Part shown: positions 8,294 through 32,098 of the stretch, one piece after another
Numbering within the stretch: position 1 is the first letter of the stretch
How the letters are laid out: every line of letters starts with the position of its first letter
DNA from: a virus
Lineage: Duplodnaviria; Caudoviricetes
Strand: one strand, 5' to 3'
Virus record (IMG/VR): IMGVR_UViG_3300023171_000016
Coordinates: 1 to 53,970 of that record
DNA: 53,970 bases
The notes under the pieces: model-generated
What the model was told of the DNA's origin: nothing
The model's database searches: none
What the model saw: only the letters and a program-made list of their open reading frames with translations
Translations under genes and position numbers: made by a program

Positions 8294-8506
8294 ATGACAC
8301 AGGAACAAGCAATTGAAGCCGTTGAAGATGCAGACATAAGTACATCCGGCTGGCTCGATGTAATAATTGAGCAGATAAGCGACAAGTACGCACAGGGTTA
8401 TTTGACCTGTTTTCTCGAAAACTTATCCGGCAGATTATCGGCAACTTACGAAGAATATAGAGAAGAAGTTTTAGAAGCACTTGAATATGATATTTGGGGT
8501 AAGTAA
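8294..8506 (+). CDS. acidic hypothetical protein
   Basis: 70 aa, A-rich leader. Confidence 0.65.
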   Translation: MTQEQAIEAVEDADISTSGWLDVIIEQISDKYAQGYLTCFLENLSGRLSATYEEYREEVLEALEYDIWGK

Positions 8507-9703: not shown

Positions 9704-9767
9704 GTTGTAAAGATAAGTAATTAATTCACACAAAAAAGGCCCACACGTGTCAAGGTGCAGGCCGTTC

Positions 9768-9809
9768 ACTGCCTCGCTGAAAACTTTGCGAGAAAACAGC
9801 GGGAGTTAG
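9768..9809. repeat. 42-bp 3'-UTR element, copy 1
   Basis: Matches 11248-11289 with one mismatch. Confidence 0.9.
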
Positions 9810-10255
9810 ATAAATATTATGTTGCCCATTCTGTGCATTTCAATGTCACCTGCGCCAAAAATAGCCATCCATTTAGCTTTATCCGCCTTAAATTCGGCAA
9901 ATGTGGTAGCATGTTCAGCCGCAAATTCGGCGCACTCATCAATGGTTGAAAAAACAGGTGTTATAGGCGTACCCTCTGTGGTTGTTTCGTAACCCTGAAA
10001 ATGGGTACACAATTCCGCGTCTTTTGGGTCATATGGCAGATAAGAAGAAACACACGGCGCATCGCCCCCATATTCTGCATAATACTTATAATCGCTGTCT
10101 TGTTCAGGGTGTTCGCGTTTACTCCAAAGGTCGTTGTTTTTCAGCCATTCAGCTAATGCCGCTGCGTAGCTTTCATTGTACATAGGAATATATTTCCCGT
10201 AACTGTCTTGTGGGTGTTTCCAATTGGCCGGAACTCTCCTTAATTCTCTTCCCAT
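9806..10255 (-). CDS. hypothetical protein (MGRELRRVPANWKHP...), independent transcription unit
   Basis: Promoter TATCTTTG 10293-10300 upstream; terminator at about 9732-9763 downstream; start moved to 10255. Confidence 0.8.
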   Translation of the reverse strand: MGRELRRVPANWKHPQDSYGKYIPMYNESYAAALAEWLKNNDLWSKREHPEQDSDYKYYAEYGGDAPCVSSYLPYDPKDAELCTHFQGYETTTEGTPITPVFSTIDECAEFAAEHATTFAEFKADKAKWMAIFGAGDIEMHRMGNIIFI

Positions 10256-10355
10256 TTTTTCGCAAAGTTTTTCACCGCTACCTGCGGCCCGACAAAGATA
10301 CACAAAAAAGCCCCACCTTTCGGCAGGGCAGTACGCGTAGGGAACATTCACGAAC

Positions 10356-11183: not shown

Positions 11184-11247
11184 TTTGTGAATGTTTTTTT
11201 GTGAGGGGTAAAGGTAATAAAAAAGGCCCACAGTTGTGAGCCTTAGT

Positions 11248-11289
11248 ACTGCCTCGCTGATAACTTTGCGAGAAAACAGCGGGAGTTAG
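11248..11289. repeat. 42-bp 3'-UTR element, copy 2
   Basis: Matches 9768-9809. Confidence 0.9.
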
Positions 11290-11558
11290 TCGGTAGATAC
11301 CGTACAATATTGGAATACCAGACTATTTGCAGCATGGTTAAACTCCATGTTGTTCAGGCCGCTATTCGTTAACTCATTGAATATCCTGTTAGGAACCACC
11401 GTAGCCAACGCATGCATAAACATGGTGAATTTCTGGTCATCGTTTAGGTCTTCCTGTGGTATGTGAAAGTCATTGTCTTCTTCAAACACCTGTGCAATTG
11501 CTCCGTACAGCTTAACTGCGTACTGAAAAATTTGGTCTTGCTTCTCTTGATGTGTCAT
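11286..11558 (-). CDS. hypothetical protein (MTHQEKQDQ...), independent unit
   Basis: TACCTTTA 11598-11605; terminator at about 11219-11243. Confidence 0.75.
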   Translation of the reverse strand: MTHQEKQDQIFQYAVKLYGAIAQVFEEDNDFHIPQEDLNDDQKFTMFMHALATVVPNRIFNELTNSGLNNMEFNHAANSLVFQYCTVSTD

Positions 11559-11639
11559 TTTTTTTCGCAAAGTTTATCCGGCAACATTACCGGACGGTAA
11601 AGGTAATAAACTTTCCGCAATTTCCGGTTAGTTGGTGTA

Positions 11640-12343: not shown

Positions 12344-12380
12344 AAAAACAAAAATCCCGCTTAGTTTTCACCAAGCGGGA
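12344..12380 (-). terminator. Intrinsic terminator (attenuator 3:4 stem) immediately upstream of the tRNA operon
   Basis: TCCCGCTTGGT-GAAA-ACTAAGCGGGA followed by TTTTTGTTTTT. Confidence 0.85.
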
Positions 12381-12403
12381 CACTATTATGTTTAACAAAA
12401 TAG

Positions 12404-20165: not shown

Positions 20166-21136
20166 ATGTTTGTCATTACTACAATTCCCCTGCAATTAAG
20201 GCATTCGTCCTGATATTGTTTAAGCATTTCAAATAGTCCCCCTTCAATCATAGCACTGAATTTGGACGTGTATTTGCCCTGTAATTCCGGTAGGTAGTAT
20301 TTTTGTATATCCTCCCTGTTGTATGTCGTCCAGCTATTCCACCGGTTAGACTTGTACATTTCTTCATACACCATTTCCTGCCACTTCAACCATATCAATT
20401 CACCCATAAATGCGCGGGAAAAATTGCACATCAATGCTTCATAATCGCACTCACAAACAAACTGAATATTAAGCCCGTACCCGTTCGACCTTACGGCTCC
20501 ATCGCCATCGTAACCCTGTGCGCTGCCGCATGGGTTTTTACTGCCACTACACCCATCTTTGCAGGTTATCACGCTTGACCCAAAATGAATGGTTGTGTTA
20601 TCTACGCGAACCAAAATAGTATGATTCTGCGCTGTGTATTCGATGTTGAATGTGTTAAGCTGGTTAGCTACAAAAGTAACATCTACATACGTGCTTATCT
20701 CTATCCCGTTGTTGTAGTCGGTAATGAGTATTTGCCCATCACCGGACACCAACGGGAAACATTGTATTTTCTTTATTTTCAGCTTACGTAAGCCGCCCCG
20801 TGTAGTTCTTCCTTTGAGTACCTGTCCCCTGTACCCGTCATATGTACCGGTGTCCTCCGTGGTATTGAAGTATGCCGTATCGTATAGCCTTTCTGTTAGT
20901 GTGCTGGCAATGTTGTTAGCCTGCAACACGCCTATGAAGTCATTTCTTACGGTAATAATAGCTGTTTCTTTCTTAGCGTTGAACATTGCAACGCCTGTAC
21001 CGTACTGCTCCGTGGCAATCTTGTTACCATTGAGCGGTGACATACCCGGTGCATTCATCAGCGTTAACCCGCTGGTGCTTGTTTCATCTTCACAAAGTCC
21101 GAGTGAAACAACGTCATTAAGGCAAGATACAAGCAT
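20162..21136 (-). CDS. putative head-tail adaptor/structural protein, Cys-rich
   Basis: Follows the capsid gene; start moved to MLVSCL after TACTTTTA (21144-21151). Confidence 0.6.
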   Translation of the reverse strand: MLVSCLNDVVSLGLCEDETSTSGLTLMNAPGMSPLNGNKIATEQYGTGVAMFNAKKETAIITVRNDFIGVLQANNIASTLTERLYDTAYFNTTEDTGTYDGYRGQVLKGRTTRGGLRKLKIKKIQCFPLVSGDGQILITDYNNGIEISTYVDVTFVANQLNTFNIEYTAQNHTILVRVDNTTIHFGSSVITCKDGCSGSKNPCGSAQGYDGDGAVRSNGYGLNIQFVCECDYEALMCNFSRAFMGELIWLKWQEMVYEEMYKSNRWNSWTTYNREDIQKYYLPELQGKYTSKFSAMIEGGLFEMLKQYQDECLNCRGIVVMTNI

Positions 21137-21150
21137 ATTGCTATAAAAGT

Positions 21151-21188
21151 AAAACAGGGGTGCAGGCATGAACCCACACCCCTGTTTT
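21151..21188 (-). terminator. Terminator after the capsid gene
   Basis: AAAACAGGGGTG...CACCCCTGTTTT inverted repeat. Confidence 0.75.
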
Positions 21189-21208
21189 GGGTTAGTTAAA
21201 AATTGCTA

Positions 21209-22564
21209 TTACGCTGTGAATGTAAACGCTGTGTCGTTGATGTTACCTGCCAGTGCAGTGTAACCGCTGTACTGTATGTTCACGCCGTTCAGGGTGAATG
21301 TTACACCGCTGTAGCTTGCATTGAACAGGGCAACAAGTGCCGTATCATTGGCAACCGATACATTCGGGTAAGACTGCTGTCCGCCGATGTTGAGGTTCGT
21401 TACTGTGAACGGATAGCTGAACGCGGGGTTATAGCTGAAAGTGTCTTCTTCTACTACAGGGCTAAGTGCTGTGCCGGTTGGGCAGTTAGGCACTACGATA
21501 GGACATGTGCGGTAAAGCATGATGCCGTTGATACCTTCGGCGTTACAAACCTGTATAGGTGTATAAAGTATGTCCCAGTTAAGCTCGAAATGCCAGTCAT
21601 AGCGGCCTGTATAGCTGCCTTCTACGCACGGGGTGTAGTGCATATAGAAGTCCCACAGAATATCGTAGTTCGGGCTTTTGAATGTGGTACGCACTACTGT
21701 TTCTGTGCCCATCTTCATCAGAGAATCGAAGCCCGTGGCCCAGTCAGTGATGTTGGTAGCCCACATACCGGCGTTCCTGTTCCAGCTCACGAACTTCAAC
21801 GCTTCCGGCGTGAATGTGAGTATGTATTCAGGGTCGGTCGGCCCTACACCCATTATGGTGTTCAGGTTCACATCATAGTACAGGTTGGCGATTGCCAGCG
21901 ATGCGAAGTTTTGGCCCAGTGTGGTATTGGCTGTTGCAATCTCGCTTGCCTTGCGCCAGTAGAACACCTCAGTTTTACCAATGTAGAACGTATTGACATA
22001 GGCAAGGTCTGTTTGTTCCAGCTCTATCTGCCAGAAACCCATCGGGGTCATCAGTCCGTTAGTTGTGTTGCTGGCTGTTACACGTGCGCCGAACTCAGAG
22101 CCATCAGCATGTACACCCTTGTGGGCGATAATGTCTGTGAGTATCTGTATATCCAGTTCCTTTTCCAGCGCGCCAAGGATAGTGGCTATCTGTATGCGGC
22201 CGTGGTCTTGTATCTGAAAGTCACCATCTACATAACGGAGCTGGTCAGGGTACAGGCTGTATGTCTTGCTTTTCAGCAGCTTGTTTATCGTGTAGAAGTT
22301 CTGTATTGGTGCCTGCTCAGTGCCGGGCGCACACAGGTTTATCGAAGTATCTTCACTTACCACATCGCACTGTATAGGGTAGTAAGACACTTTCAGTTGG
22401 CGCAGCTTGCCGGGGCCGTCAAGGAAATCGCCGGAAACTTCGCGTATAGTGCTATTCAGGTCACGGGCATTCAGTACGGCCCTTATGCCTTCAAATATCG
22501 GGGTTCTGTATTTCTGGTCATAAAGAAATTTCTGAATTGCCCTGCCTGCATTTAAAAATGACAT
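21209..22564 (-). CDS. putative major capsid protein (C-terminal beta-rich extension)
   Basis: 451 aa, follows the scaffold, has its own promoter and terminator. Confidence 0.7.
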   Translation of the reverse strand: MSFLNAGRAIQKFLYDQKYRTPIFEGIRAVLNARDLNSTIREVSGDFLDGPGKLRQLKVSYYPIQCDVVSEDTSINLCAPGTEQAPIQNFYTINKLLKSKTYSLYPDQLRYVDGDFQIQDHGRIQIATILGALEKELDIQILTDIIAHKGVHADGSEFGARVTASNTTNGLMTPMGFWQIELEQTDLAYVNTFYIGKTEVFYWRKASEIATANTTLGQNFASLAIANLYYDVNLNTIMGVGPTDPEYILTFTPEALKFVSWNRNAGMWATNITDWATGFDSLMKMGTETVVRTTFKSPNYDILWDFYMHYTPCVEGSYTGRYDWHFELNWDILYTPIQVCNAEGINGIMLYRTCPIVVPNCPTGTALSPVVEEDTFSYNPAFSYPFTVTNLNIGGQQSYPNVSVANDTALVALFNASYSGVTFTLNGVNIQYSGYTALAGNINDTAFTFTA

Positions 22565-22801
22565 GTTGTCAGTAATTTAAGAGGTTAATAAAAGATTGAT
22601 ATTAACCTCTTGCTGTTAGGCTCGGTTCAGCCTGCAACGCGTTACGGATAGGTGCGTGAAACCTGCAATGGTTTTAGGAGTGACCATGAACACGGTGTAA
22701 AAGTATGTAAGCGTTTTGATATAGCAAAATAAAAATAAAAAAACCCACACATTGCTGTGTGGGCCTGTCGTGGTTCACTGGTTATGGCACAGCGGCCCAC
22801 A

Positions 22802-23662
22802 CTACGCTGGAATGCCTAAATACTCCATAAGGTTGCTCTCTGCCTGCTGGTTTGGCGACATCATGTTACCATCAGCCCCTTTAACAAAGTGGTCTTTCGG
22901 CTTTGCTATTGCCTCCGCCGGATTTACGGCCCTGTTGTCTTCGTTCCACTGCATCCGGTCTACGTGGTATTGTTTCTGTATGTCGGCAAGTTTAACCTGC
23001 TGCGAACGGGCATCATTCAGCGCGAGGTTATTCGGGTTGTTTTTTTCGTACAACACTATATCCTTACCGTCCTCTGTCAGCTTCACAGTAAAGTTGCCGT
23101 GCAAATACTGCTCAAAATCTGATTGCAGTATATCTTTTTTCGCCTTCGGGTCAATCCCCTTAGCATTCGCGTACAACTGTCCCAGCACATTTTTAATGCC
23201 GAAAGAAGCTATTTTCTGCTGAAACTCTTGTTCTTTAGCAGTTAGCGTACCCTTTACTGCTTCCAGTTCCTTGGCATGGTTAGACATTACCTCTTGTAGC
23301 TGCTGTGCTGCCGTGTCCTTGTCCGTTCCGAGGCTCTTGGCGTAATGCTGAACGGCCAAACGTGTGGCTTCTTTACCGTCCTTGCCTTCTATTTCTGCTG
23401 CGGGTATGCCGGTAAGCTCTATGAGCGTTTTTTTATGTGCGGCGGTTATCTTTCCGGACACTTTACCGTTAATTTCGCCTTCCAGTACGCCCCTTAGTTT
23501 CTGCTCTATTATCGGGCTACGGTTCGCATCAACAAGGCTCAATATTTCATCCTCATTGTATGCCGTTTCTGCATTATCGTCCGCAACAAGGTCTACGTCC
23601 TCCCCTGTTAACTTGCTGTACGCTTGCTGTAATTGTTTTGCTGTTAATTTGCGCTGTGCCAT
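22802..23662 (-). CDS. putative capsid scaffolding protein
   Basis: Charged helical 286-aa protein between portal and capsid. Confidence 0.65.
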   Translation of the reverse strand: MAQRKLTAKQLQQAYSKLTGEDVDLVADDNAETAYNEDEILSLVDANRSPIIEQKLRGVLEGEINGKVSGKITAAHKKTLIELTGIPAAEIEGKDGKEATRLAVQHYAKSLGTDKDTAAQQLQEVMSNHAKELEAVKGTLTAKEQEFQQKIASFGIKNVLGQLYANAKGIDPKAKKDILQSDFEQYLHGNFTVKLTEDGKDIVLYEKNNPNNLALNDARSQQVKLADIQKQYHVDRMQWNEDNRAVNPAEAIAKPKDHFVKGADGNMMSPNQQAESNLMEYLGIPA

Positions 23663-23665
23663 ATG

Positions 23666-23854
23666 CTACTTTTTTTTTAAAGTGAAATTTTCCCGTTTAC
23701 TATATACCCTGTCCCACATTTCCTGAGTGACTACCATTGAGCCGCTACCCGATACTTCTACTTCTACATATCCGGCTTCAAGTACTGTTTCACTTGAATG
23801 CGTTACTACCGTGGGCTGTAGTACGGGTTGTAGTACTTTTTTGTTGTCTTTCAT
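23666..23854 (-). CDS. hypothetical protein
   Basis: 62 aa, coupled. Confidence 0.6.
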   Translation of the reverse strand: MKDNKKVLQPVLQPTVVTHSSETVLEAGYVEVEVSGSGSMVVTQEMWDRVYSKRENFTLKKK

Positions 23855-23855
23855 G

Positions 23856-24197
23856 CTATCCGAGTTTAAATTGTGTGGGATAACGCTTTACCATGCTTTC
23901 GGCGCGTTTCTTGCTCATAAGCGAACCTTTACCACCGGATATGGGTACAAGACGCGCTTTTTCGGCTGTGTTGCCGCTGGCCGGCGCGGGGGTGTCCAAT
24001 GAAGGTTGCAATATATGCTTTACGGGCCTTAGTACCGGCTTTGTCGCGGTAACATCCGTGTGTGCTTTACCCTTTTGTTCTTCCACAAGGATGTTAAACC
24101 CCTGCTCACTTAGCCCCATCAACAGCAGTTGGTGCGGGTCTGTAATGGATGGGTTTTTGTCCATCAGTTCTTTGTCTTTGGTTGTTAGCTTTGCCAT
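23856..24197 (-). CDS. hypothetical protein
   Basis: 113 aa, coupled. Confidence 0.65.
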   Translation of the reverse strand: MAKLTTKDKELMDKNPSITDPHQLLLMGLSEQGFNILVEEQKGKAHTDVTATKPVLRPVKHILQPSLDTPAPASGNTAEKARLVPISGGKGSLMSKKRAESMVKRYPTQFKLG

Positions 24198-24208
24198 AAT
24201 CGATTTTT

Positions 24209-26035
24209 TTATTCGTTAACTTTTACTACTGTTTCTGTTGTTTCCGGTGGTTCCGGCTTTTCAATGGTGTCGTTCTCTTTTTTTACCAGTGCTTCAATTT
24301 CATCATACGGAGCATTCACAAACCATATTGTACCGCGCTCACGCTTTATTTTGTCAAGTATGGTAGGCAGGTTATTGCTGAATGAAAACGCATCTATTGT
24401 GATTGCATTACTTGCCAGCATTGCCGATTTTTCTATCATTGGAGTAACAGCGAACGGGTCCATTTGGTTGATAAGTGACACCTTTCGCTTCATGTAATCA
24501 CTGCCGCCAAAAACCTTATCAACGTACTGCTCAAGCTGCTTTTTAATCACGTATTCCGGTATGTCTGCGTCTTTGCTTTCCTTCATTTCTTCCAGCAAAT
24601 CAAACTCCGTTTTAAGCGCAAAATCAGTAGGCTTCACTAACTCATATTGCGGTATTTCCGGCTTACGCTCTCCGTCCGTTACTTGGGTATGCCGGATAGA
24701 TAACACGTCAATTAAGCACGATTCTATAAGATTCCACACACCATTACTTACCATTGACCGGTACAGGTATTCAGCCTCTCGGTCTATTTCTTTTGCTTTG
24801 CCGCTTTGCGCTTCGTCTATGGTCTGTTGGTGAAGGGAGCTTTTAATACCTGCTTTTATAAGGTCTGCCGTTTCTTGTAGATGCTTGTTGATGTTAACAT
24901 CGAAGTTGATTATTTTAAGCAACTCCTTATCTGCCATATCTTTCGGCACCATTACCCGCTGGCCGGGATTGAAAGACATTATGAACTTTGCGCCGTTACA
25001 GTCGGGGCAAGCAATTCGTGAAAAGTCTTTATTTTCAGATTCGCATACGCACTGGCTGCCTTTATGGTGGCACGTGTTACAAAACTGTACCTCCCCGTGC
25101 GCATTGCAGCCGGGGCAATCTGTCTGCACCATCTGAATAAATGGAAAACACGCCTCTTTATTTACCATCTGCACGTCACTGTGTGCAGAAACAAAGTCAT
25201 CACAAAATGGCAATGCAGCCTTTAGATAGCTGTCATAGTAACGCAACGTATTCCATATTCCGCCTGCAATATGTATAGGCTTACGGTTCAGCAAGTGTGC
25301 ATAATATCCATCGTCCACGCCATCAGCATTTACATATGTCTTACCGTCCTCCTCTCGCTTAAACCTGAAATATCCGGTATCAGTAATCCACCACGCATAC
25401 TGCCTATCTGAAAATGGTTCGTAATAAACTACTTCATCTTCGCTTATGTATAGTATTTCGGCAGAAGGTATATGTATGATTTCAGGCTCTACCATTGTGC
25501 CGGTTTCTTTGCGGCTTACTTTTGGCTTCACCACAAACAGACTGTTAGGGTCTTCGCATATGGCTTTAAACATCCACTCGAAATACCCTACAAACGTTTT
25601 ACCTGAAAAGTTTTTCCCGTCTATATACTTTTGGTCTTCTGTGTCTGATATCAGCAGTGTGTATTTGCTGTCGCCAAAAATACACGCTGACAGGCTATTG
25701 ATAGCTTCCAGCAGTGGGGCCATTTGATACGGCCTGTAAACAGACTTACGGTATTCCCTTGTTATCTGTGGTTCGCGGGGATATCGGTTAAGCAGGTAGG
25801 TATCGAATATTAAATCGTAATTAGCATTTATCCACCATGTAGGCGTAGTTTGTGCTGTGCCTAATGCGTAACCGCTTGTTTCATTATACCGCAATGGGTA
25901 GAACCTCGGACACGTACCTGTGGTATGTATCGAGGTTCTATAAAATATATTCTGCCACTGTATAAGGAAAGGTTGCAGGGCAAAACTGCCGTTAAGCATA
26001 CTTAAAACTTCTGTTTGGCTACGAGCCATAATCAC
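24209..26035 (-). CDS. putative portal protein with a Cys-rich zinc-finger insertion
   Basis: 608 aa; AQSGKAKEID portal-like motif; CPGC...CNTC...CPDCNG insert; upstream of scaffold and capsid. Confidence 0.75.
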   Translation of the reverse strand: MIMARSQTEVLSMLNGSFALQPFLIQWQNIFYRTSIHTTGTCPRFYPLRYNETSGYALGTAQTTPTWWINANYDLIFDTYLLNRYPREPQITREYRKSVYRPYQMAPLLEAINSLSACIFGDSKYTLLISDTEDQKYIDGKNFSGKTFVGYFEWMFKAICEDPNSLFVVKPKVSRKETGTMVEPEIIHIPSAEILYISEDEVVYYEPFSDRQYAWWITDTGYFRFKREEDGKTYVNADGVDDGYYAHLLNRKPIHIAGGIWNTLRYYDSYLKAALPFCDDFVSAHSDVQMVNKEACFPFIQMVQTDCPGCNAHGEVQFCNTCHHKGSQCVCESENKDFSRIACPDCNGAKFIMSFNPGQRVMVPKDMADKELLKIINFDVNINKHLQETADLIKAGIKSSLHQQTIDEAQSGKAKEIDREAEYLYRSMVSNGVWNLIESCLIDVLSIRHTQVTDGERKPEIPQYELVKPTDFALKTEFDLLEEMKESKDADIPEYVIKKQLEQYVDKVFGGSDYMKRKVSLINQMDPFAVTPMIEKSAMLASNAITIDAFSFSNNLPTILDKIKRERGTIWFVNAPYDEIEALVKKENDTIEKPEPPETTETVVKVNE

Positions 26036-29726: not shown

Positions 29727-32098
29727 ACTACTCCCGATAATTCTATATACTGTCCTGTCCCCTCACTATCGCCCACTTTATAACATGCTTTGATGCCTGT
29801 AATTATGCCCATGTTATAAAATGTTGTGTCCAAAAGTACAGTAAATAACAGTCTTTGCCCATTTACATTTTCAGTAAGCCTCAATTTTTCTATATCCTCA
29901 CAGCACAAAGGTATTTTCAACCGCCATTTTTTATTCAAACGTGGGTATCTGCACGGGTCATCTATCCAATGGTATCTATCCCATAACGTGCCTGCATAGT
30001 GTGGCTCATAGTACATAGAGTAATTAACCAGTATTGCCGCATTTGCCAGCACTGTTGCCCCGAAAATGTTGGTTACCGCATATACACCTGCCGGAGTTCC
30101 AAACGGCGGGAATTGGCCTATAACCTCTACTTTCGGCGGGTGATTGTCAACCCACGGCGTAGGCGAAGGTATAGAAGCAGGAACAAATGTAGTCCCGCCA
30201 ACGTCCGGCACCATAGTAGGGTACAGCGTGTTAATGGTCGGTTCAGTAATTCCCGGCACAGTGCCAGCATAGCCGGACTTGCCAATAGTATATACTGTGC
30301 CATCAATATTTATCTTGTCACGTACCGCCGTAGCATTCAGGTAGTTTGGGTCGGTTGGATTAGCAACATCACCATCCCATATTAGTATTTTAGGTTTGCT
30401 GATTGTTTCGGACTGCAACAACAATTTGTAGTCTGCATATGCGCCTATCTTGGTTGCCAGTTCTCCGAGTATCACCAACCCTAATGGGCTTACCGCCGTA
30501 AGTGAGTACGACACTTGTAGCGCATCATATATGTAATTGGTAGTGCTGCCATCACAGTTAAAGTGAGCCGCTGAAAAACCGGATAGCTTATTGAGCATAC
30601 CGTTAAAAATAGGATTGATAACGGTATTCCCGAATGATATATGCTGTGTGCCGTTGTAGAAGTCGCCTGCCTCTACACCACATTTATCGGCTGTGTCGTC
30701 TTCGTACAGATACGAAACGGATGCAGGCAATACTAATTCCTGCTGCTCATAACATATACCCTCAACTATCTTACTACGGTCTGCACCGCCTATACTGAAA
30801 TCATACAACGGGGCTTGGTCTTGAAACCAATCTTTTCGCTTAAAATACAGCGTAGGAACACCCGCCTCTACTATTATCCGCCACTGGCTGTTATACAGGT
30901 TCCCCATTTCATCTAAAAACCTATCAAGCGATATTACAGGCGCGTTTTCAGGCTGGTAGTATGTTGTAGTGTCAGGGTCTGTTTCTCCGGTAAACAGGTT
31001 TATTTTTCTGAACCTGCGCACGCCACGCTTCACCTGCGGGAATAAGTAACATGCGTTATAATCAGGGTTCGGCTCTGTGTGTAATGCACCGTCACTATGT
31101 GTAAGTGATATGATAGGCGCAAAGAATGTATCAGCGGTCGAAGCGGAAACTACTACACCACACTTATTGCAGACATTCAGAATATAGTCACGAACGAACG
31201 GCGCGGGGTGTTCCCTGCCACAGCCTGCCGCCTCAATCATGGTGTTAGCCCATCCTAAGAATACTTCTACAGGTGTAACAGGTGCGGGGCCGGGGTCTGC
31301 ATCGGGTATATCAGGTATTGGCGTACCGCCGACTATAGCGATAATAGCATTTACTGCTGAAATAATGAAGTTGATAGCGGCAATCAGTCCCGACAATGCC
31401 ACACGGATAAGCCACACAATCAGCAATATCGGATAGAACACTGTGTACAGCAGTGACATTATTATAGCTACCAACATGGACAATTGCCACAGTAACACTA
31501 ACGTCCAGTTGGGCCGCTTTTCTATGCAGTACCCGAAACGCGGGTGTTTGACTAACAGCCCCGTGTTTACGTCTACCGGTTCGGGCTGGAACCAGCCTTG
31601 CCAGTTATCGCTAATTACCGTGCGCTCTATGCAGTTCGTATAATCTTCAATCTGCTTCAAATTCAGGTTGAACACGCATAGGCTGTTAAATTCGCACCAC
31701 TCCAAGTGATCGGACTTAATGAAATATCCCGTGTACCTGCCGCAGCTTGTATCGGTTATCTGTACCTCTACCTGATTTAGCGTACCGGCCACATCGTCAA
31801 CCAAATAAGCCTTTAGAAAATCATATGCGGCACGTTCAAACGACAGTGAAGCAGAAACCCCTTTAACCGGCGCAAACTTACCTACTGCCGCTTTGCCATC
31901 GTCTGTTTTTTCGGCTGACCATTCTAATTCTATGTCTTGTAGCCCTTCAACATAATCGGTGAAGTCTTGCCACGGGTTACTGATACTGCCAATAGTCACA
32001 GCCAAAGACAAAGGATTAGGGCCGGTGTAGTACACATCGTTACCGTAAATATCCTTTAGCTGCCGTTTCCTTAGCTGTATCGTTAGTTGTTTGAGCAT
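29723..32098 (-). CDS. putative tail protein with an internal hydrophobic segment
   Basis: 791 aa; long TM-like stretch WTLVLLW...IIAIVGG. Confidence 0.65.
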   Translation of the reverse strand: MLKQLTIQLRKRQLKDIYGNDVYYTGPNPLSLAVTIGSISNPWQDFTDYVEGLQDIELEWSAEKTDDGKAAVGKFAPVKGVSASLSFERAAYDFLKAYLVDDVAGTLNQVEVQITDTSCGRYTGYFIKSDHLEWCEFNSLCVFNLNLKQIEDYTNCIERTVISDNWQGWFQPEPVDVNTGLLVKHPRFGYCIEKRPNWTLVLLWQLSMLVAIIMSLLYTVFYPILLIVWLIRVALSGLIAAINFIISAVNAIIAIVGGTPIPDIPDADPGPAPVTPVEVFLGWANTMIEAAGCGREHPAPFVRDYILNVCNKCGVVVSASTADTFFAPIISLTHSDGALHTEPNPDYNACYLFPQVKRGVRRFRKINLFTGETDPDTTTYYQPENAPVISLDRFLDEMGNLYNSQWRIIVEAGVPTLYFKRKDWFQDQAPLYDFSIGGADRSKIVEGICYEQQELVLPASVSYLYEDDTADKCGVEAGDFYNGTQHISFGNTVINPIFNGMLNKLSGFSAAHFNCDGSTTNYIYDALQVSYSLTAVSPLGLVILGELATKIGAYADYKLLLQSETISKPKILIWDGDVANPTDPNYLNATAVRDKINIDGTVYTIGKSGYAGTVPGITEPTINTLYPTMVPDVGGTTFVPASIPSPTPWVDNHPPKVEVIGQFPPFGTPAGVYAVTNIFGATVLANAAILVNYSMYYEPHYAGTLWDRYHWIDDPCRYPRLNKKWRLKIPLCCEDIEKLRLTENVNGQRLLFTVLLDTTFYNMGIITGIKACYKVGDSEGTGQYIELSGVV

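Follow-up and report, generated by a model that had tools for sequence, protein, structure and literature searches.

An exact complement of the start region in the 3' untranslated region of a putative phage scaffolding protein gene: a possible lineage-specific fold-back

Introduction

Can the messenger of a phage head gene close its own start codon with a piece of its own tail? The question is raised by a locus in an uncultured phage whose DNA is present in leaf-litter and soil metagenome runs, and which is represented in IMG/VR by a complete virus record (IMGVR_UViG_3300023171_000016, 53,970 bp), the whole of which we analysed and refer to as the window. On its minus strand, a gene for a putative scaffolding protein of 286 amino acids (22802..23662, ATG at 23662-23660, TAG at 22804-22802) is followed, shortly past the stop codon, by a 12-nt word that is complementary to the start region of the same gene (the anti-start). 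Self-regulation through pairing of the 3' untranslated region (UTR) with the start of the same mRNA is known for very few bacterial messengers, icaR and hbs being the worked examples. If the scaffold element acts in this manner, the principle would extend to a structural gene of a double-stranded DNA (dsDNA) phage, and also to the Bacteroidota, with ribosomes that ignore the Shine-Dalgarno (SD) sequence and with start accessibility as the main handle on initiation.

The explanation that we favour, tentatively and with somewhat less than even confidence, is a lineage-specific, icaR-like fold-back in cis, in which the 3' end of the scaffold mRNA would pair with its 5' start region, hide the AUG and limit scaffold translation in an SD-blind host.

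Results and Discussion

The start region and its complement

Past the TAG, the minus strand reads TGTGGGCC GCTGTGCCATA ACCAGTGAACCACGACA GGCCCACAC AGCAAT GTGTGGG TTTTTTT, and the anti-start CGCTGTGCCATA (22783..22794, minus strand, 8-19 nt past the stop codon) is the exact reverse complement of the start-region arm TATGGCACAGCG (23652..23663, minus strand), which runs from -1 to +11 of the scaffold gene and spans its ATG. All 12 of the 12 pairs are Watson-Crick, and these two are the only zero-mismatch copies of the 12-mer in the window, so that the perfect 12-nt anti-start reported in the initial annotation of this DNA proved exact in sequence and in position. The start of the gene is well supported, because five homologous proteins (49-57% identity) begin with MAQRK or MA-RK, the MAQRK N-terminus being conserved in 5 of the 6 aligned sequences. 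The scaffold leader AAAAAAAAAGTAGCAT is without an SD sequence, and the helix covers the AUG and positions +4 to +11 instead. Partition-function folding of the RNA from 23700 to 22738 (963 nt) predicts the 12 long-range pairs at a mean probability of 0.96, together with terminator pairs at 0.6-1.0 each.

Gene calls were greedy open reading frames (ORFs), 88 in this genome, and among them the longest complement between a start (-15..+15) and the gene's own 3' 100 nt is the 12 nt of the scaffold gene. When starts and 3' ends of different genes were paired, 0 of 7482 combinations reached 12 nt and 13 reached 10, while 8 of 7482 cross pairs reached 12 nt when alternative in-frame starts were allowed. 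For the first 40 nt of the scaffold 3' UTR, a count over 644,982 positions of pooled phage DNA gave 6 partner words of at least 12 nt, one of them the true site, and hence a rate of about 1-2 x 10^-4 for the scaffold gene (1.8e-4 per 30-nt window).

The main rival explanation, in our judgement a rather unlikely one, is that an ordinary Rho-independent terminator stands beside a chance or neutral 12-nt complement with no selected effect. Per 54-kb genome, some 3 perfect inverted pairs of 12 nt are indeed expected at distances of up to 1 kb (54,000 x 1000 / 4^12), but none of the 7482 cross pairs reaches 12 nt, and one point change in this non-coding DNA would abolish the helix. A 12-bp helix over the AUG should also be costly to an SD-less system, as can be expected from the account of secondary structure around the start tuning initiation in Flavobacterium johnsoniae (PMC6847099). 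As far as such counts go, a chance origin of the 12-nt complement is unlikely, and the match is unusual, not overwhelming.

Distribution among relatives

Searches with the scaffold and capsid proteins and with the 6-sequence scaffold alignment found no close relatives among viral, metagenome and genome contigs, and no cultured-phage record was matched by the window DNA or by the capsid protein. A capsid alignment search gave 7 viral, 26 metagenomic and 24 genomic loci. With the window included, 51 loci had a usable syntenic scaffold gene and were grouped into 34 clusters; left out were L011, L017, L026 and L033, with no upstream ORF in the fragment, and L030, L032 and L052, in which the upstream ORF is short or its start doubtful. 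An order-level genome search gave matches in 5 of 401 genomes, at loci outside the 34-cluster set.

Each cluster was scored by its longest helix between start and 3' UTR, with at most one G-U pair, against 313 other start regions. Only the window (12 bp) and locus L031 (15 bp) lie above every null; of the 10,642 pairs that form the pooled null, 12 bp is reached by 4, 13 bp by 1 and 14 bp by none. In full-length folds, pairing of start and 3' UTR of at least 0.5 is predicted for 4 of the 34 native mRNAs (L031 0.86, window 0.80, L003 0.71, L013 0.60) vs 3 of 73 swapped-UTR chimeras, a comparison that rests on 107 folds of 170 planned.

L031 is located on a 2.8-kb metagenome contig, and its scaffold protein, 18% identical to that of the window, has no relative among viral contigs. 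Its 15-bp helix, with one G-U pair, joins positions -1 to +14 of the start with the first 15 nt after the stop codon (190-204 and 1034-1048), and differs in sequence from the helix of the window while keeping the same register. Its partner is the sole 15-nt partner word in 644,982 positions (chance at most about 2.5e-5 per window of search, and below about 1e-3 over 33 clusters). A second, sequence-unrelated case in the same register argues against a chance origin.

Several results weigh against the fold-back. Outside the window and L031, the best helix reaches 9 bp in L042, 8 bp in L003 and L038, and 4-8 bp in the rest, and 31 of the 33 other clusters fit the null, with a Fisher combined p of 0.64 for the 33 non-window clusters. 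The comparison of own and swapped 3' UTRs gives a Mann-Whitney p of 0.43 (0.52 without the window), and in L002, the nearest sampled relative, the pairing probability of start and 3' UTR is 0.0004. Five related complete phage genomes hold 0 of 467 ORFs with an own complement of at least 12 nt. Anti-start pairing, judged from these loci, is no family-wide rule. Additionally, the chance of the match over all 88 genes is about 0.01-0.02, which is not extreme when, as in the initial annotation, many kinds of feature are scanned, and in an energy-based duplex test the gene's own start ranks at only p 0.02 among 152 other starts. Equilibrium folding ignores ribosomes, proteins and kinetics. The scaffold protein is needed in high copy number, so there is no obvious need for a repressive element, and the name of the gene is itself a reasonable assignment from its position and the predicted helical shape of its product, not from a family match.

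The explanation by chance draws on the same distribution, since the complement is absent from 31 of the 33 other clusters with no trend in the family, swapped-UTR controls occasionally reach a predicted pairing of 0.5 or more as well (3 of 73), and the conserved part is the terminator, a terminator-like hairpin with a T-run being found 41-62 nt past the scaffold stop codon in 9 of 9 members of the window's clade. The initial annotation had regarded the device as selected and had proposed conservation of the complementarity in scaffold homologues as a check. That conservation was not found in the 33 other clusters, L031 being the sole comparable case; in favour of the annotation's interpretation are the rarity of the complement and its dominance in the predicted fold, and against it are the 0 of 467 ORFs in the five related genomes. 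With its patchy distribution (2 of 34 scaffold lineages), the element, if real, would be a fast-evolving, lineage-specific tuning device and not a conserved part of head assembly. The full-text literature that we searched describes no 3'-UTR anti-start for a phage scaffold gene, which is not proof of absence.

The best helix lies at or before position 8 of the UTR in 12 of 34 clusters, where about a quarter would be expected, a difference that is not significant. In the five related genomes, an own complement of at least 10 nt is present in 11 ORFs vs 7.7 expected. One of the records, G403, to which L002 belongs, has 5 ORFs with a 10-nt complement between own start and 3' end vs 1.5 expected; all are A/T-rich, they include the genes 22325-22606, 24496-25092 and 30233-30997, and three lie within 6 nt of the stop codon.

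The terminator and the alternative fold

The hairpin AGGCCCACACA GCAA TGTGTGGGTTT (22741..22766, minus strand) has 11 pairs, 5 of them G-C, a loop of 4 nt and a predicted energy of -16.6 kcal/mol on its own. It runs into a T-run of seven (T7 at 22743-22737), and a G+C-rich hairpin with an immediate U-tract 3' of a stop codon is what is expected of an intrinsic terminator. Upstream of it, segment 1, GTGTGGGCC (22794..22802, minus strand; the final G of TAG is its first base), can pair without mismatch with segment 2, GGCCCACAC (22757..22765, minus strand), which is also the 5' arm of the terminator. Segments 1 and 2 could therefore form a 9-bp antiterminator helix (1:2), of which segment 1 is the 5' arm, and this helix and the 11-bp terminator helix (2:3) are mutually exclusive, as they share one segment. 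When segments 1 and 2 are paired, they enclose a loop of 27 nt that holds the anti-start, between the stop codon and the terminator.

The competing terminator and antiterminator folds of the initial annotation thus do exist as a three-segment arrangement, and a 9-nt upstream partner of a terminator arm is rare, being equalled in 4 of 3000 random 50-nt windows, while the seven other strong terminators of this genome have upstream partners of 3-8 nt. In the nascent transcript before segment 3, helix 1:2 is the minimum free energy (MFE) structure, at -22.9 kcal/mol, and it is lost when the stop codon and the 12 nt after it are masked to mimic a ribosome at termination. In the complete 3' UTR, the terminator with a small upstream hairpin reaches -30.3 kcal/mol vs -22.9 kcal/mol with the antiterminator forced, a difference of 7.4 kcal/mol, and in the 963-nt fold the antiterminator has a probability of 0. 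Since 1:2 is the MFE structure only before segment 3 is made and is at 0 at equilibrium, a three-segment switch is plausible kinetically and not at equilibrium. The antiterminator therefore holds for the nascent transcript and fails both at equilibrium and in the relatives, where 0 of 7 from the clade have an upstream partner of more than 4 nt for the terminator arm.

In trp-leader attenuation, pairings 1:2 and 2:3 exclude each other; the terminator is 2:3, and segment 1 is covered by a ribosome that has reached the stop codon. The scaffold 3' UTR has the same three-segment layout; it differs in that it follows a structural gene of 286 codons and not a short leader peptide, has no regulatory codons and is not kept in relatives. 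By the same logic placed at the 3' end of a gene, a ribosome-gated terminator could act here independently of any start pairing: a ribosome on the stop codon would cover segment 1 and permit the 2:3 terminator, and lagging translation would permit 1:2 and read-through toward the capsid gene. We regard this as improbable. The fold of the nascent transcript, its loss on masking from the stop codon to +12, the energy of the terminator hairpin alone and the rarity of the 9-nt partner would all fit it, but at equilibrium the antiterminator is at 0 and the terminator at about 1, favoured by the 7.4 kcal/mol given above, and none of the 7 clade relatives has the partner. Segment 1 is moreover identical to the 3' arm of a terminator at 9738-9746, and so it may be the remnant of a duplicated arm. 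The 9-mer GTGTGGGCC occurs exactly three times in the window (9738-9746, 22757-22765 and 22794-22802), the first copy being the 3' arm of the terminator after gene 9806-10254, which suggests that terminator arms were reused or duplicated within this genome.

Read-through matters for the claim in the initial annotation that the arrangement tunes the ratio of scaffold to capsid protein. Downstream of the terminator, TACTTTTA (22698..22705, minus strand) is a one-off match to TAnnTTTG, the consensus of the -7 promoter box of Bacteroidota given in PMC6847099, and the corresponding word in relatives is TACTTTTG, TACCTTTG or TATATTTG. Between this box and the capsid gene, the leader contains the tandem hairpins CAGGT..ACCTATCC and CAGGCT..AGCCTAAC (22615..22665, minus strand). 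Of the 34 clusters, 22 have one or two hairpins of the form (C)AGGN-loop-N'CCTWW in the spacer between scaffold and capsid genes, where their density is 5.06 per kb vs 0.60 per kb in the scaffold coding sequence. These hairpins match no Rfam family and may represent a conserved but undescribed leader RNA, or a site of protein binding, in this group of phages. With a -7-box-like word and a conserved hairpin leader past the terminator, the capsid gene looks like a transcription unit of its own, and the ratio need not be tuned by read-through; as the box is one base off the consensus, read-through could nevertheless matter, which would favour the ribosome-gated terminator. The anti-start alone would not explain the stoichiometry of scaffold and capsid.

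A pairing region displayed in a loop and followed by a terminator is the usual anatomy of small RNAs (sRNAs) derived from 3' UTRs. The scaffold 3' UTR has such an anatomy, its anti-start being exposed in the loop of a G+C-rich stem of 9 bp, with the terminator next to it. A stable hairpin-terminator fragment could in principle build up as the mRNA decays and act in trans, by pairing with the start of other scaffold mRNAs as a delayed negative feedback. This is highly improbable: the sole perfect target in the genome is the parent gene, no promoter-like box for a separate RNA was found, and Rfam gave no family at E <= 1 within 20900-24300. In its favour, base-pairing sRNAs are described as repressing initiation in Bacteroides, an example being the translational repression of SusC-like transporters by the FopS sRNAs of Bacteroides thetaiotaomicron (PMC11697453). 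What is similar to FopS, as described there, is the setting in the Bacteroidota and repression of initiation by pairing at the 5' end of an mRNA; the difference is that those are separate, trans-acting host sRNAs on susC-like genes, with no sequence relation to the scaffold element (no Rfam match).

Elsewhere in the window, a second alternative fold may exist at the terminator 12354-12381 (minus strand), whose 5' arm has an 8-nt complement in the 50 nt upstream; of 3000 random windows, 16 equal this.

A leader and 3' cassette at two other genes

A scan of this genome revealed two further genes with strong complementarity of their own 5' and 3' ends, both on the minus strand, at 11286-11557 and at 9806-10254 (the true start of the latter being ATG 10254 and not GTG 10351). 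Both have the leader word AAACTTTGCGAAAAAA before the ATG and a common 3' module, TAA CTCCCGCTG [TTTTCTCGCAAAGTTWT] CAGCGAGGCAG followed by a TGTGGGCC-TTTTTT terminator, and the proteins that they encode are unrelated. The cassette (9730-10300 and 11215-11600) combines a TAYCTTTR box that resembles a promoter with a leader of about 38 nt, which ends in AAACTTTGCGAAAAAA-ATG, and with a 3' hairpin; this hairpin lies between stop codon and terminator and carries a 17-nt loop complementary to the leader. Its core word AACTTTGCGAGAAAA occurs 5 times in alternating orientation, with a related copy at 8407-8427.

As the two genes have the same leader word and the same 3' module, we treat them as one reused cassette and not as independent inventions. 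The scaffold gene, described in the initial annotation as an independent fourth instance of the device, is therefore in weaker company than was claimed, the other strong cases found in this genome being two copies of one cassette; the independent case, different in sequence, is that of L031. A single, compensated base pair distinguishes the copies (leader GAUAA with UUAUC, leader GAAAA with UUUUC), and leader-3'UTR pairing is predicted at 0.77-1.0 in the cassette genes. Together with the placement in a loop, the compensated pair and the predicted pairing support the general idea of an anti-leader, and a leader/3'-loop pair with a compensatory difference in the same genome speaks against mere chance at the scaffold gene.

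Other origins of the 12-nt match were considered and rejected. A dispersed repeat does not fit, as the 12-mer has two perfect copies only, unlike AACTTTGCGAGAAAA with its 5 copies. An antisense gene at the anti-start does not fit either, since the plus-strand ATG at 22784 opens 11 codons only; a 78-aa antisense ORF begins in the 3' arm of the L031 helix, and the two are not consistent. A DNA inversion between the arms was rejected on weak grounds, namely that it would be senseless for a scaffold gene and that the contigs from 3 DNA runs show no joint; one of these runs is perhaps the source of the record, and the other two hold identical short pieces that leave 22742-22875 uncovered.

A proposed fold-back and its possible logic

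The favoured fold-back depends on the type of host. The 4-nt SD core is present in 2 of the 45 ATG-start ORFs of at least 100 aa in this genome, leaders are rich in A (0.56-0.67 at -14..-10 vs 0.27 genome-wide), TAnnTTTG-like boxes come after terminators, and the capsid relatives are prophage-like loci in genomes of Chitinophagaceae and Flavipsychrobacter. All this fits a host that is likely a member of the Bacteroidota, with ribosomes that do not use SD pairing.

In the fold-back that we favour, the scaffold transcription unit would end in an ordinary intrinsic terminator, and the hairpin loop between stop codon and terminator would display the 12-nt complement of the gene's own start region. 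Once the 3' end is made and the start is free of ribosomes, the tail could fold back on -1..+11 and hide the AUG, and SD-blind ribosomes of the Bacteroidota, which would need an unstructured start region, would be kept from initiating. Scaffold translation would then be confined to three cases. One is the co-transcriptional window before the fold-back. Another is a ribosome coupled from the upstream 62-aa ORF, whose stop codon TAG (23666..23668, minus strand) is 3 nt ahead of the scaffold ATG; termination at that codon would place the ribosome over the start-region arm. The third is the melting of the helix by a ribosome that terminates at the scaffold stop codon, the anti-start beginning 8 nt past that codon. 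The antiterminator arm that overlaps the stop codon may add a ribosome-dependent control of termination, which would be specific to this phage and weaker. From sequence and predicted folds we infer the helix in vivo, the translational repression, each kinetic step of the fold-back and the gating of the helix by ribosomes.

To hypothesize further, the start could be gated by termination: every ribosome that completes the gene would open the helix and free, close to where it stands, the start codon of the mRNA that it has just translated. This bolder version, which we think decidedly doubtful, would use the position of the anti-start within the footprint of the terminating ribosome (8 nt past the stop codon here, 0 nt in L031), and would amount to a closed loop in which translation sustains itself while ribosomes flow and locks shut once they have stopped, the mRNA perhaps being destroyed. 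Phages of SD-blind Bacteroidota would then have evolved stop-adjacent anti-start elements repeatedly and independently, the instances being the scaffold genes in two lineages far apart and, in this phage, the leader/3' cassette shared by two early genes. If true, it would be a general means to meter the amount of protein per transcript.

Comparison with known systems

The fold-back in cis has its closest model in the icaR mRNA of Staphylococcus aureus, whose 3' UTR pairs with its own 5' UTR and blocks initiation, the duplex being a substrate of RNase III (PMC3868564). As in icaR, a 3'-UTR segment is complementary to the initiation region of the same mRNA, and the effect proposed for the scaffold gene is a block of initiation. 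According to that account, the target in icaR is the SD region (through a UCCCCUG motif) and the 3' UTR is long, whereas here the target is the AUG with codons 2-4, with no SD sequence, and the element, 8 nt from the stop codon, falls within the footprint that a ribosome would have on terminating; for icaR, conservation and cleavage by RNase III are reported, whereas the scaffold element is known from its sequence and predicted fold. Conservation of the icaR type is not seen, a comparable helix being present in 1 of the 33 other clusters (L031). In the hbs mRNA of Bacillus subtilis, a 14-bp interaction of 5' and 3' UTRs modulates cleavage by RNase Y (PMC5737220). The likeness, within what that source describes, is a long-range helix of similar length (14 vs 12 bp) that joins the ends of one short mRNA; the hbs helix modulates cleavage of the leader and stabilises the mRNA, whereas here the 5' arm is the start codon, in a polycistronic context. 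As two features of icaR (the SD target and conservation in orthologues) are missing, we regard the scaffold element as a variant of the icaR/hbs-like principle and not as a plain member.

Another explanation is a helix for mRNA stability or processing, which would protect this part of a polycistronic late mRNA against an endonuclease cutting close to the start, as in hbs, or, jointly with neighbouring helices, create a double-strand nuclease site, as in icaR, its effect on initiation being secondary. We give little credit to this explanation: the helix is close in length to the 14 bp of hbs and is predicted to be stable, but its 5' arm is not at the 5' end of the mRNA, lying 3 nt past the upstream ORF, and 12 bp is short for RNase III.

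Two phage systems resemble the fold-back in part. In the RNA phage MS2, the Min Jou interaction is a long-range helix that hides a start and is opened by ribosomes translating elsewhere on the RNA. A start hidden by a long-range helix that ribosomes would open is common to both; MS2 has an RNA genome and a helix from the coat gene to the replicase start, while here the mRNA of a dsDNA phage would pair its start with its own tail. In phage P22, synthesis of the scaffolding protein is reportedly controlled after transcription, the scaffolding protein itself being the effector of autoregulation, and we know of no RNA fold-back in it. Post-transcriptional control of the scaffold is proposed here too, with the difference that nothing at this locus points to protein binding.

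Gene neighbourhood and the prophage-like clade

The minus-strand gene order is portal, a 113-aa ORF, the 62-aa ORF, the 286-aa gene, a spacer of 237 nt and a capsid gene of 451 aa, and the order of portal, two small ORFs, scaffold gene and capsid gene holds in related loci. The portal gene (24209-26035, minus strand) matches phrog_7376 at E 1e-10. The 286-aa protein has no match in Pfam and none in PHROG; its AlphaFold2 (AF2) model, with a predicted local distance difference test (pLDDT) score of 78, consists mostly of long helices (37-84 and 115-165), and in a Foldseek search against BFVD it gave 0 matches at E <= 0.001 and weak matches only (best E 2.9e-3), which include entries named scaffolding protein (e.g., E 7.4e-3). 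The gene of the major capsid protein (21209..22564, minus strand) encodes an HK97 fold (AF2, pLDDT 77), and Foldseek against the PDB gave its model 138 chains at E <= 0.001, the best of which are phage major capsid proteins.

In the prophage-like clade from the Chitinophagaceae and Flavipsychrobacter genomes, a hairpin right after the scaffold gene takes the place of the U-tract terminator. L019, L037, L039, L042, L043, L058 and others have the hairpin core GCCGGACGCGGC and then TATTCAAACAATACGTT in the first 40 nt past the scaffold stop codon. The clade, with capsid proteins 35-39% identical to that of the window, is present as one copy in many species and may be a widespread prophage or a domesticated element.

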